The notes below the pieces were generated by a model. That model searched no databases. It was not told where the DNA came from and saw only the letters and a program-made list of their open reading frames with translations. The position numbers and the translations under genes were made by a program. A DNA stretch of 4,683 nucleotides, taken from the IMG/VR virus record IMGVR_UViG_3300030438_000128, one strand, 5' to 3'. Below, piece by piece: positions 1 through 4,341 of the stretch (position 1 is the stretch's first letter; every line of letters begins with the position of its first letter). Source of the DNA: a virus. Its lineage: Duplodnaviria > Heunggongvirae > Uroviricota > Caudoviricetes.

Positions 1-305
1 CTAAAAACTGGGGATAACGCCTTAAATGGCGAAGAAACGGTCTAAATAGGCTGATTCAAGGCATTTACGGGAGAAAAAATCGACTCAAACATGAAGAAAT
101 GAAATGACTGAGTCAGCCGAGAAGAATTTCCCCGCTTATTCGCACCTTCCCTAACCTTCTAGTCCGCTTTGAGCGAAAAGCAGACTGTCACGCGTTGAAG
201 TTAATTGTATTACTTAGATAAACACTATCATTTTCCTGACGTTAAGTTGTATCTTTGATAGGATTAAAAAACGTATAGATAGCTTATGCTACTGAGGGAA
301 TAAAA

Positions 306-1115
306 ATGACGAAAATTAGTGAACGATGGAAGCACAATGGCATTACTGAAGGTTATTGCAATATTTGTGGGAAATATGGCTTGCTCACAAAAGATCATGT
401 TCCTCCAAAGTGCGCCATAACCTTAGGCCCTGTTTTGCAGAAAACAGTTAGCGAATTTTTTGGTATTCAGGAACCAGTTAAACCATTAAATGCTAAAAAT
501 GGCTCTTATTTCAGAACCATTTGCAGCCACTGTAACAATAAGGTATTAGGTGGGCTCGATGTTGCAATTGAAAATGTAACAAAGTCCTTTAAAGAACAGT
601 TAAGTCGATATATGAATGGTATGAATGTATATCCATTCATTAGAATACCTTTTGATAGCATATCTTTCACTAAGGCTATGATTGGGCACGTGCTATCAGC
701 AACTTCAGTTGAAGATTGTAAAAAAGAACCCGTAGATAGCCCCTTCTATACACCTTTAAAGGATTATGTTTTGGGTAAAAATTCAAGTTTTGAGGAAACT
801 CATGATATTTACTACTGGTTTTACCCACACAGAATGCACATATCCGCTCAAAGTGTAGCATTTATGAACGAAGGACATGTGGCATTTATTTGTGCTTTAC
901 ATTTTTTTCCTATCGGTTTTATTATCACAATGAAAAATGAAGGAACATACCCTGCCCACTCTACAAAATTAGAACTTGAAGATAAATTCCTTACATTTAA
1001 TATGACCTCTATAAATTATGAGTATACGACATTTCCATTTGTAAATCTTAAGGGAAACCAAATGTATGCGATAAGCAACGGTCATACTTGTGTGAGTTAT
1101 CCAATAATTAAGTGA
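306..1115 (+). CDS. HNH-motif nuclease-domain protein with an uncharacterised ~190-aa C-terminal region; AT-rich prophage cargo gene
   Basis: 269-codon ORF from ATG 306 to TGA 1113-1115. GAGGG at 294-298 sits 7 nt upstream of the ATG. Residues 18-79 show C18-x2-C21, D30-H31-V-P-P, N62/N65 and C73-x2-C76-N-N-K, the spacing of an HNH (His-Me finger) zinc-ribbon nuclease core. Remainder has no motif I recognise. Composition is visibly AT-richer than the flanking genes (by eye, not computed). Confidence 0.8.
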   Translation: MTKISERWKHNGITEGYCNICGKYGLLTKDHVPPKCAITLGPVLQKTVSEFFGIQEPVKPLNAKNGSYFRTICSHCNNKVLGGLDVAIENVTKSFKEQLSRYMNGMNVYPFIRIPFDSISFTKAMIGHVLSATSVEDCKKEPVDSPFYTPLKDYVLGKNSSFEETHDIYYWFYPHRMHISAQSVAFMNEGHVAFICALHFFPIGFIITMKNEGTYPAHSTKLELEDKFLTFNMTSINYEYTTFPFVNLKGNQMYAISNGHTCVSYPIIK

Positions 1116-1169
1116 CGGCTAAATCATACAATCTACGCATGTTCACTTTCTACATATACCATCTATAAT

Positions 1170-2865: not shown

Positions 2866-3291
2866 TCAATGCACTGCCACAGCATTTCCTGCCGGGCCAC
2901 CACGGTTCATCTGATTGAAACCGGCGATTGCCACTGCGACAAAATCATCAGCGTCTCTCACCAGTCGCTCCCGCGTCTCCACCAGCTCCCGAAAATAAGC
3001 TGAACTGTGGCTGCGCATTCTGGCCACCAGCAAAGGTGGCATTGCCTTTTCGATCGCTGGTAACAACGCCTGAATTTTTTCAACTGCATCAGGGGTGTCT
3101 TTCTCTACCCAGCGGAAAATTTTCTGGGTATTGCGAGCCAGGGCTTCCGGATGGCTGTCGTCATACAGTTCTGGGAACGTCATACCCAGTTCAAAATAAG
3201 CCCTGGTTATTTCAGCTGCCGGAACTTTTTCACCGTCCGGATGCGCCCAGGCATTCATCGCCATGCGGATGTGTTCATGCTTGATTTTCAT
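2866..3291 (-). CDS. YdaT-like prophage regulatory protein (CII-like position), 141 aa
   Basis: ATG is the complement of 3289-3291, with AGGAG 8 nt upstream on the - strand. N-terminus MKIKHEHI... matches my recollection of the YdaT family of Rac-like prophages. Lies immediately downstream of the Cro-like gene, overlapping its 3' end by 17 nt. Confidence 0.75.
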   Translation of the reverse strand: MKIKHEHIRMAMNAWAHPDGEKVPAAEITRAYFELGMTFPELYDDSHPEALARNTQKIFRWVEKDTPDAVEKIQALLPAIEKAMPPLLVARMRSHSSAYFRELVETRERLVRDADDFVAVAIAGFNQMNRGGPAGNAVAVH

Positions 3292-3556
3292 GAATCAAGC
3301 TCCTAGAAAGTGGTTGTGTTAACGTTTTGGTATCTTCCAGCTCGGGCCAAATATTCATCCAATCAAAAGGCCTTAGTTGCTGACGTGTAACTTCACCATT
3401 ACTGGCTCGCTCAATAAGGACACATAACGATGCCCCTAACACTTGACCTTTACTCAATGCCTTTCTTAGATAACCGATGCTGGTACCACACTCGCATGCA
3501 AACATACGCTGTTCATCTGACGAAAGAGAATTGAGAAATATTCTTAATTCTTCCAT
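3275..3556 (-). CDS. Cro-like HTH regulator of the YdaS family, 93 aa
   Basis: ATG is the complement of 3554-3556, with AAGGAG 5 nt upstream. The segment CGTSIGYLRKALSKGQVLGASLCVLIERASNGEVTRQQLRP resembles the YdaS/Cro-type HTH pattern (recalled). Divergent from the repressor gene across an operator-bearing intergenic region. Confidence 0.75.
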   Translation of the reverse strand: MEELRIFLNSLSSDEQRMFACECGTSIGYLRKALSKGQVLGASLCVLIERASNGEVTRQQLRPFDWMNIWPELEDTKTLTQPLSRSLIHENQA

Positions 3557-3581: not shown

Positions 3582-3656
3582 AGAATACCCACAGGTAAAC
3601 AAAAGTCAATACCCACAGGTTGTTTACCTTGCGGTAATCGCATCTATTATTTACCT
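3582..3656. promoter_or_regulatory. Divergent PR-like / PRM-like promoter region with two operator repeats
   Basis: O1 TACCCACAGGTA (3586-3597) and O2 TACCCACAGGTT (3610-3621), centres 24 bp apart. - strand promoter candidate: -35 TTGACT (complement of 3604-3609), 16-bp spacer, -10 TATTCT (complement of 3582-3587). + strand promoter candidate: -35 GTTTAC/TTTACC (3622-3628), -10 TATTAT (3645-3650), ending 6 nt before the repressor ATG. Inverted repeat GGTAAACAA (3594-3602) / TTGTTTACC (3620-3628). Confidence 0.5.
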
Positions 3657-4076
3657 ATGGACAAATATGAATTTAGACGACAGCAACTCATCAAAATTCG
3701 TGATGAGAAATGCGATGGTAAAGCGGTTAACGTGGCCAGAAAGATCGGGCGCGAGCCTTCTTATGTATCAAGAATGTTGTACCCAGAGGGGAAAAAGGGA
3801 AAAAAACGGATCGCTGATGATATGGTGGAGATTATCGAAGAGTCCTTTGGGTTACCCCGGGGATGGATGGATGGTATCGTTTCATCATCAACGAACACAG
3901 CCTCCAGTTATGAAACAAGGGTTCTAACGCCACGACAACGTATTTTTTTAGATCTCTTAGACGAACTGCCAGAAAGTGAAGCGGATAACTTATTAAAAAC
4001 TCTTGAAGAGAAAAAACAGTATTACAATATGATCTACGAAGAAATCCGTAAAAAGAAAGCACAAAACGCATCATAG
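3657..4076 (+). CDS. CI/DicA-like HTH prophage repressor, 139 aa
   Basis: ATG 3657 with no Shine-Dalgarno upstream (possibly leaderless). HTH-like segment AVNVARKIGREPSYVSRML. C-terminal LTPRQRIFLDLLDELPESEADNLL... resembles the C-terminus of DicA-type repressors (recalled). Divergent from the Cro-like gene and flanked on both sides by TACCCA-type operator sites. Confidence 0.8.
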   Translation: MDKYEFRRQQLIKIRDEKCDGKAVNVARKIGREPSYVSRMLYPEGKKGKKRIADDMVEIIEESFGLPRGWMDGIVSSSTNTASSYETRVLTPRQRIFLDLLDELPESEADNLLKTLEEKKQYYNMIYEEIRKKKAQNAS

Positions 4077-4118
4077 CTCACCAAACAACTAGTCACCAGT
4101 TAAGACACCGCAAAAAGT

Positions 4119-4159
4119 TACCCATGGGTATTTACTTTTTAAATACCTATGGGTATCCT
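4119..4159 (+). promoter_or_regulatory. PL-like promoter with two 12-bp palindromic operators
   Basis: O3 TACCCATGGGTA (4119-4130) is a perfect palindrome; O4 TACCTATGGGTA (4144-4155) has one mismatch; centres are 25 bp apart. Candidate -35 TTTACT (4131-4136), 17-bp spacer, -10 TATCCT (4154-4159), reading into the downstream + strand small genes. Confidence 0.5.
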
Positions 4160-4341
4160 TCTTTTCATACCAACCCACCCCGCCCCACAGAATGCAGGGC
4201 AATACTTCGAGTTACCAGGCAGTGGTCAGGGGTTAAGTAGCCAGCCCGAGGCGTAAGAACATGACGGCAGGGTTCAACTTTAATAACTATGCAGCAGGTT
4301 TTTGTTCCGCTACCCCGGCGTTAAGGGGAAATGAGGTCAGC

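Follow-up and report, generated by a model that had tools for sequence, protein, structure and literature searches.

Known single-gene systems and related nucleases

The closest described systems to the gene considered here are Sirona and Nemetona, single-gene anti-phage systems carried as integron cassettes in Vibrio cholerae N16961 (Darracq et al., bioRxiv 10.1101/2024.07.02.601686), with which it is compared by description only. The gene is an open reading frame (ORF) with an ATG start at positions 306-1115, on the plus strand, of a 4,683-nucleotide viral sequence (Caudoviricetes; IMG/VR record IMGVR_UViG_3300030438_000128), the whole of which is called the window, and it encodes a 269-amino-acid (aa) protein (WP_000161640.1; PHROG 21495, function unknown there). 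It is self-contained mobile cargo that moves among phages, satellites, plasmids and integrons. Sirona and Nemetona are described as small genes distantly related to His-Me (HNH) endonucleases, and Sirona is reported from 34 Pseudomonadota genera; the family described here likewise has members that are single-gene cassettes of integrons, in V. cholerae and in Plesiomonas, and is spread over many gammaproteobacterial genera. The difference lies in the domains invoked: for Sirona and Nemetona the authors name NinG (PF05766) and a type II restriction domain as relatives, and the family here matches HNH_5 and Endonuclease_7 instead.

Fun(Z) of phage P2, the occupant for which the Z/fun slot is known, is alike in position. 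The P2 record describes fun(Z) (L097, 1176-2762) as a nonessential gene of lysogenic conversion that blocks the growth of T5, and the copy of our gene in the P2-like phage pro147 has the same position and orientation, between genes G and FI. However, Fun(Z) has 528 aa and no HNH motif, and BLASTP shows no kinship between the two protein sequences (E 0.32).

As for the predicted nuclease domain, HNH_5 (PF14279) and the group-1 His-Me nucleases (McrA, the HNH of Cas9, homing HNH enzymes) have in common with the family a CxxC...DH-x-P...CxxCN motif, a Cys4 zinc site and a predicted beta-beta-alpha order (PMC5714182), but, unlike in described HNH families, the finger here is split by an insertion and fused to a C-terminal domain without counterpart in Pfam and fold searches. 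In Septu PtuB and other HNH effectors of multi-gene systems, the HNH domain is the killing or cutting module, and one member of the family shows a marginal PtuB match (E 0.005). Effectors of the PtuB type need partner ATPases or sensors, whereas this family has neither a conserved partner (45 loci) nor a significant PADLOC match.

Domain architecture of the encoded protein

A word-indexed search with the 269-aa protein returned 93 relatives, and an exhaustive profile search returned 1,761 representative clusters at E ≤ 1e-3, with 341 at E ≤ 1e-30. Nearly all clusters are 255-300 aa long, about 270 aa, and match end to end; thus the family has one fixed architecture and is not a shuffled domain. 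A scan of species-representative genomes found 37 family loci, covering more than 25 gammaproteobacterial genera plus one Chloroflexota metagenome-assembled genome (MAG); in the genome that represents V. cholerae, no close relative of the family is present. Conservation was assessed in a divergent set of 64 members with 19-45% identity to the window protein, in which C18, C21, H31, P33, P34, C73, C76, N77, D85, G127, H128, W171, P202 and P244 are invariant and D30 and Y173 are kept in at least 90% of members.

On the strength of this motif conservation, a split HNH_5 match and a modelled beta-beta-alpha order, the N terminus (residues ~13-90, positions 342-575 on the plus strand; C18, C21, D30-H31, C73, C76, N77 and D85) is most likely a Cys4-zinc His-Me (HNH_5-like) finger at the superfamily level, which makes the protein a predicted nuclease. 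The initial annotation had pointed to an HNH signature here, and the motif is indeed present: C18-x2-C21, D30-H31-V-P33-P34 and C73-x2-C76-N77 are invariant or nearly so across the family, although the Pfam score remains below the cutoff. Both CxxC pairs of the putative zinc site are invariant in the 64 members. The AlphaFold model of the 269-aa protein is compact (pLDDT 86.2, pTM 0.88), and in it the candidate catalytic histidine H31, with D30 before it and the two prolines after it, ends strand 24-32, C73 ends strand 67-73, and C76-N77 lie within the next helix, 74-80, so that the candidate metal ligand N77 stands directly after the second CxxC at the helix start. This order is the His-Me finger layout in the classification of Jablonska et al. 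(2017, PMC5714182).

Against a gathering threshold of 27.5 bits, the window protein scores 11.6 bits with the Pfam HNH_5 profile. HNH_5 is nevertheless found at E ≤ 0.01 in 17 of the 64 divergent members (best 9.8e-5), and Endonuclease_7 at the same level in one. In distant members, the CxxC..DH segment is covered by positions 1-22 of the HNH_5 profile, and the CxxCN..D segment by positions 33-52. Between these two segments lies a family-specific insertion of ~35 residues (36-66), which splits the finger and accounts for both the low score and a profile that matches in two pieces.

The C-terminal domain comprises ~165 residues (~105-269; positions 618-1112, plus strand), is of alpha/beta type, and carries the invariant G127-H128, W171, P202 and P244 as well as Y173. 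The model is of high confidence here and shows helices that lead into a long antiparallel sheet. Profile and fold searches had been proposed for the protein, and no curated family or solved fold covers it: Pfam, NCBIfam and PADLOC v2 give no family above threshold, PDB profile searches with two alignments give no matches even at E ≤ 10, and Foldseek with the model against solved structures reaches a best E of 0.16, with no resemblance and no HNH structure recovered. The earlier impression that the C-terminal region matches no nameable family is therefore borne out, but the HxxH-like spots pointed out in it (YPHRMH and EGHVAF) do not hold up, as their histidines are kept among close relatives only and the invariant histidine is H128, in MIGH. 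The sole significant viral match of the protein is another uncharacterised phage protein, of 266 aa. Database names for the family are 'chaperonin', in many entries, and 'metal-binding protein'; the former looks like a propagated misannotation, since no search produced evidence for it.

Distribution, insertion contexts and shared slots

Of 5,426 complete Escherichia coli genomes, 134 carry the gene together with its flanks, against ~1,074 that match the backbone junction next to it. Other prophages hold different cargo or none at this position, so the variable presence that had been anticipated is seen. Three unrelated backbones carry the same protein at 95-100% identity. The first is the lambdoid slot between DUF977 and hokD, represented by the window; the second is pro147, where the gene lies between those for tail sheath (FI) and tail-fibre assembly (G), in the orientation opposite to FI; and the third is a 110-kb plasmid, where it adjoins a gene for a 200-aa tyrosine recombinase (WP_001752951.1).

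Homologues extend these contexts. In Serratia fonticola, a P4-like satellite has the homologue as its only gene in the interval from int to psu, a locus described as the P4 defence hotspot (Rousset et al., PMC9122126). In the chromosomal integron of Plesiomonas shigelloides CP027852 (L098, 1-16813), the homologue at 8001-8813 is a single-gene cassette between copies of a 128-nt attC-like repeat that occurs 18 times in the array; other cassettes of this array encode HEPN_AbiU2, Shedu SduA_C, Fic, NUDIX and a PLD/NgoFVII-like nuclease. A VCR-like attC follows the V. cholerae homologue. The integron setting belongs to these homologues, and the window copy lies outside any integron. Further homologues are found at the end of a filamentous prophage in Vibrio, after a DUF2726 gene, and in integrase or resolvase islets of Pseudomonas, Pectobacterium and Motilimonas.

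A comparison of neighbours across 45 loci found no conserved gene, the commonest neighbour being a small serine recombinase in 8 of them, and the GC content (GC) of the family gene is under that of its flanks in 42. At four loci (L112-L114 and L117; Citrobacter, Raoultella, Tenebrionibacter and a Serratia MAG), a conserved ORF pair of 259 and 169 aa, which by eye resembles a nucleotidyltransferase and a membrane protein, lies ~60-2150 bp downstream of the family gene. The proposal that ORF 306-1115 is prophage cargo fits its occurrence in the Z/fun slot of P2-like phages, the P4 int-psu hotspot, integron cassettes and a plasmid, together with its low GC, and the gene is neither a packaging HNH gene nor a core phage gene, either of which would have spoken against that proposal.

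The composition, orientation and start of the gene were also as first described, with one qualification. ORF 306-1115 has a GC of 0.349 and a GC at third codon positions (GC3) of 0.296, against GC values of 0.485 for DUF977, 0.539 for the replisome organiser and 0.523 for the YdaT-like gene, whose GC3 values are 0.49-0.55. The Cro-like and repressor-like genes are fairly AT-rich too (GC 0.41), so the AT-richness of the ORF contrasts with the replication genes (34.9% versus 48-54% GC) and not with every neighbour. The operon of DUF977, replisome organiser, YdaT and YdaS genes lies on the minus strand and faces the plus-strand ORF convergently. The ORF has its own ribosome-binding motif, GAGGG at 294-298, 7 nt 5' of the ATG. 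This motif falls within an upstream region (186-305, plus strand) that travels with the gene: the sequence of this region is almost the same in the copies from lambdoid prophages, the plasmid, Kluyvera and Erwinia and, from about window position 220, in pro147, and it presumably holds the gene's own regulatory signals. Past the gene, a promoter-like TTCACT-16 nt-TATAAT (10/12 matches; 1142-1169, plus strand) lies within the cassette, reads outward through the right boundary site (R site, see below) antisense to DUF977, and is kept in the pro147 and plasmid copies; the count of such sites in the region is at or below chance expectation.

The same slots hold other cargo. Between DUF977 and hokD, some related lambdoid prophages carry a RelA/SpoT protein that matches the PADLOC candidate PDC-S33 (5e-119), others carry a cassette of two genes that match HEPN_RES_NTD1 and GNAT weakly, and in some the slot is empty; PDC-S39 is a further alternative in the lambdoid slot. 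The exact R site is found in 84 IMG/VR contigs, the cargo-side sequences of which form 16 clusters. Nine representatives of these clusters were scanned against PADLOC and gave matches to PDC-S39 (1.7e-102), HerA (3e-252), ThsB (9e-128), Lit (7e-11) and, weakly, mREase-IV/PDC-S02-like; four of the nine had no match. The gene is variably present at hotspots whose alternative occupants are largely known or candidate defence genes.

Several occupants without a PADLOC match are additional uncharacterised candidates. They include the two-gene cassette just mentioned (333 and 320 aa; L005, 1925-3904, from PMV-1), which is found in 19 of the 84 viral contigs, a 153-aa ORF (L089) in 13 contigs, and cargo of P2-like phages of 256 aa (L054) and 251 aa (L014).

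Proposed function and alternatives

On balance we lean towards the view that the gene encodes a stand-alone, mobile single-gene defence or superinfection-exclusion nuclease, carried as cargo for lysogenic conversion. The initial annotation had put it forward as a candidate single-gene defence, exclusion or toxin gene, and its positions at defence hotspots support that candidacy, the role in defence still being inferred. The main support is circumstantial: in two phage backbones, in a satellite and in integrons, the gene is found where defence genes are found as well. There is precedent for reading position in this way, as six of eight randomly picked unknown genes from P4 hotspots proved to be defensive (PMC13586616).

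In the proposed mechanism, C18, C21, C73 and C76 would hold zinc, H31 would act as the general base, and the catalytic metal would be bound by N77, probably together with D85. The C-terminal domain, packed against the finger, would supply target discrimination, either by keeping the nuclease off until an infection cue appears or by reading a feature of foreign DNA. Activation would lead the nuclease to cut the invading nucleic acid, and possibly that of the host too, and thereby to stop the competing phage. Because the gene has no partner, antitoxin or methyltransferase, self-protection must be built into the protein, and it could consist of activation by an infection cue or recognition of modified foreign DNA.

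Several observations weigh against a role as a defence nuclease. Ten distant members scanned singly against HNH_5 scored 15-22 bits (maximum 22.4), all below 27.5, and an hhalign comparison of the family with T4 endonuclease VII was uninformative (probability 2.9%). A consensus promoter scan found no strong sigma-70 promoter upstream of the ORF. PADLOC-DB v2.0.0 gives no match for the window protein, and literature searches by accession (WP_000161640, YP_009207630) returned nothing, with no experimental result found for any family member. In addition, cassettes bounded by the same type of sites in Erwinia also carry non-defence cargo (GNAT, DJ-1/PfpI and Tlde1), and integron cassettes have many functions; thus, position alone is not proof. 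The absence from PADLOC is nevertheless weak evidence, since Fun(Z) too has no match in PADLOC-DB v2.0.0. PADLOC v2 also predates Sirona and Nemetona, and the 64 divergent members gave three marginal matches only (E ~0.005). The protein does not occur in the supplements of the DefensePredictor and Rousset papers.

McrA-type Type IV enzymes combine an HNH domain with a modification reader. A nuclease of this kind, in which the C-terminal domain would read a base or backbone modification of foreign DNA and the His-Me finger would cut without any infection switch, would also be a defence enzyme, though with another mechanism. It would suit a lone, stably carried nuclease gene that has no methyltransferase, antitoxin or partner in 45 loci, so that discrimination must be intrinsic, and Jablonska et al. 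put McrA and HNH_5 in one His-Me group (PMC5714182). Even so, we regard such modification-dependent restriction as unlikely.

The nuclease might instead serve its mobile element in other ways, namely as an addiction module or toxin, by excluding plasmids or rival elements, or in competition between bacteria. Every kind of mobile element sampled carries it (prophages, a satellite, a plasmid, integrons and integrase islets), toxin-antitoxin genes are often nearby (ParE/RelB, PemIK, hokD), and a Tlde1 effector domain is among the Erwinia array cassettes. However, no antitoxin or immunity gene adjoins it and no small ORF is conserved, either in the cassette or across the 45 loci, Pfam shows no secretion signal or toxin-delivery domain, and the identified cargo of its phage and satellite slots is mostly anti-phage. 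A type II toxin-antitoxin pair in particular is set aside, as the cassette has no small ORF upstream or downstream of the gene and no neighbour is conserved, and an element-serving role of any of these kinds seems to us to have little likelihood.

It is improbable that the likeness to an HNH finger is superficial and belongs to a zinc-ribbon protein without catalysis, for example a DNA-binding regulator or adaptor. The HNH_5 matches all lie under the curated cutoff, the fold searches recover no HNH structure, and database labels go no further than 'metal-binding protein' or 'chaperonin', but conservation extends beyond the cysteines to the catalytic residues (H31, N77 and D85 invariant, D30 in at least 90%), which degenerate fingers usually lose.

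Least probable of all is that the nuclease works for its own spread, either as a selfish HNH endonuclease of homing type or by promoting movement of its cassette, for instance by cutting palindromic boundary sites: free-standing intergenic phage HNH genes are classically homing endonucleases (general knowledge; PMC5714182, group 1), palindromes bound the cassette, and one member weakly matches the junction- and cruciform-cutting fold Endonuclease_7, yet the family occupies at least six unrelated insertion contexts and not one target gene, has no NUMOD, IENR or AP2 DNA-binding modules in Pfam, has attC sites to explain its mobility in integrons, and shares its identical boundary sites with 16 cargo clusters (84 contigs) that include many unrelated genes without such a nuclease.

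Palindromic boundary sites

The cassette is bounded by two 24-nt palindromic sites. The L-type site, GTCCGCT-TTGAGCGAAA-AGCAGAC (162-185), forms the left edge of the transferable cassette, and the R-type site, GTCCGCT-GTTGGCACAA-AGCGGAC (1170-1193), the right edge of the slot. The latter is the stem-loop reported after the ORF in the initial annotation. The structure exists, as an 8-bp stem at 1168-1195, but not as a terminator: no T-run follows it on either strand, the terminator scan is silent there, and the site is common to unrelated cargo, being a shared slot boundary.

The R site is conserved at the junction in six of six aligned contexts. Similarity to pro147 and the plasmid stops just past it, similarity to lambdoid prophages with other cargo starts just before it, and P2 itself has the site with one mismatch ~60 bp after gene G. 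On the left, the plasmid match begins exactly at window position 162, the first base of the L site, and in Erwinia the L-site stem is preserved by compensatory changes. An L...R pair bounds every lambdoid slot variant, with the L type on the hokD side, and the 'empty' slot of A20 has L and R sites 225 bp apart. Two sites are found in 54 of 142 loci, and shuffled controls yield no site at all; boundary-site regions besides that of the window are L106 1096-10252, L002 3255-10705 and L007 3765-4036. In a locus of Erwinia aeris, nine sites delimit a tandem series of L-cassette-R units, and neighbouring units meet in R-(15 or 18 nt)-L junctions. At the head of this array stands a gene for a tyrosine recombinase of 202 aa, which has 87% identity to the recombinase encoded beside the E. 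coli plasmid cassette. A homologue of the recombinase, 57% identical, also lies near the family gene in Onishia.

Each boundary site consists of 7-8-bp inverted arms around an asymmetric 8-10-bp centre, of which there are two types. Because this layout is that of tyrosine-recombinase core sites, and two heterospecific sites flank the slot, cassette exchange is conceivable, and the L and R sites together with the recombinase may form a natural cassette-exchange system. P2-like slots show the R site only, and the Erwinia cassettes hold GNAT, DJ-1/PfpI and Tlde1 genes, both of which weigh against pressing this hypothesis. To judge by the title of Nilsson et al. (2004; cited in PMC9122126), site-specific recombination at the variable loci of P2 may have been put forward earlier, and these sites may already be described there. 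For exchange at hotspots, Rousset et al. (PMC9122126) speculate on cos-end and homologous recombination, and a hotspot survey (PMC13586616) makes no mention of such 24-nt sites. Integron cassettes and pdif/Xer modules likewise place short palindromes around single-gene cargo, in units that can stand in tandem beside a tyrosine recombinase. In contrast to attC and IntI, the L and R sites are 24 nt long and of two types, the recombinase has ~200 aa and is not IntI, and exchange here is hypothetical.

A more ambitious combined picture can be drawn, which we offer tentatively and with more doubt than conviction. The protein would be a new single-protein immune nuclease in which a C-terminal fold not seen before (GH128/W171/P202/P244) gates the split His-Me finger; it would have no kinship with validated systems, Sirona and Nemetona among them, and it would be linked with L and R palindromes that act as heterospecific core sites of the ~200-aa tyrosine recombinase for cassette exchange of defence cargo among P2-like phages, lambdoid prophages and plasmids.

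Prophage setting of the window

The window covers the early part of an E. coli prophage of the lambdoid, Qin/Rac-like kind. Strain EFF60 matches the window at 100% identity, and 25 more genomes, mostly of porcine enterotoxigenic E. coli (ETEC), align from position 151 on. The minus-strand operon consists of the DUF977/Ren-like gene (1262-1684), the replisome organiser (1725-2801), the YdaT/CII-like gene (2866-3291) and the YdaS/Cro-like gene (3275-3556); the plus strand carries the repressor-like gene (3657-4076) and ydfA-like genes. Positions 1-150 are the right end of an IS5 copy lying between hokD and the cassette, with CTAA at 151-154 after the IS5 end. This copy is unique to EFF60 among the matching genomes, and elsewhere the sequence runs on into hokD and nin-type genes.

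Inside the replisome-organiser gene, five copies of TCGTGAC, where chance predicts 0.45, form two clusters (2360-2407 and 2629-2667) at a distance of 260 bp; they look like origin iterons such as those of lambda O. Operator-like repeats stand on both sides of the repressor-like gene, at 3584-3620 and 4114-4160; these regions contain AATACCCACAGGT twice at 24-bp spacing and the palindromes TACCCATGGGTA and TACCTATGGGTA. An Rfam scan of the window, hairpins included, gave no match.

Implications

If the family turns out to be Sirona-like, the window copy adds a member to a validated system; otherwise it represents a new family of a known kind, and the word 'undescribed' in the initial annotation is provisional for this reason. 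If the gene is defensive, it would be a compact nuclease system of one gene, ~810 bp long, in which a new fold does the regulating or sensing, present in more than 25 gammaproteobacterial genera and unannotated by Pfam, NCBIfam and PADLOC v2. Since porcine ETEC prophages and plasmids carry the gene, the host range of phages used in therapy could be affected. The boundary sites are the most unexpected by-product of the analysis, and the context of the gene points to a route by which two 24-nt sites and a small tyrosine recombinase may swap defence cargo between unrelated phage backbones.

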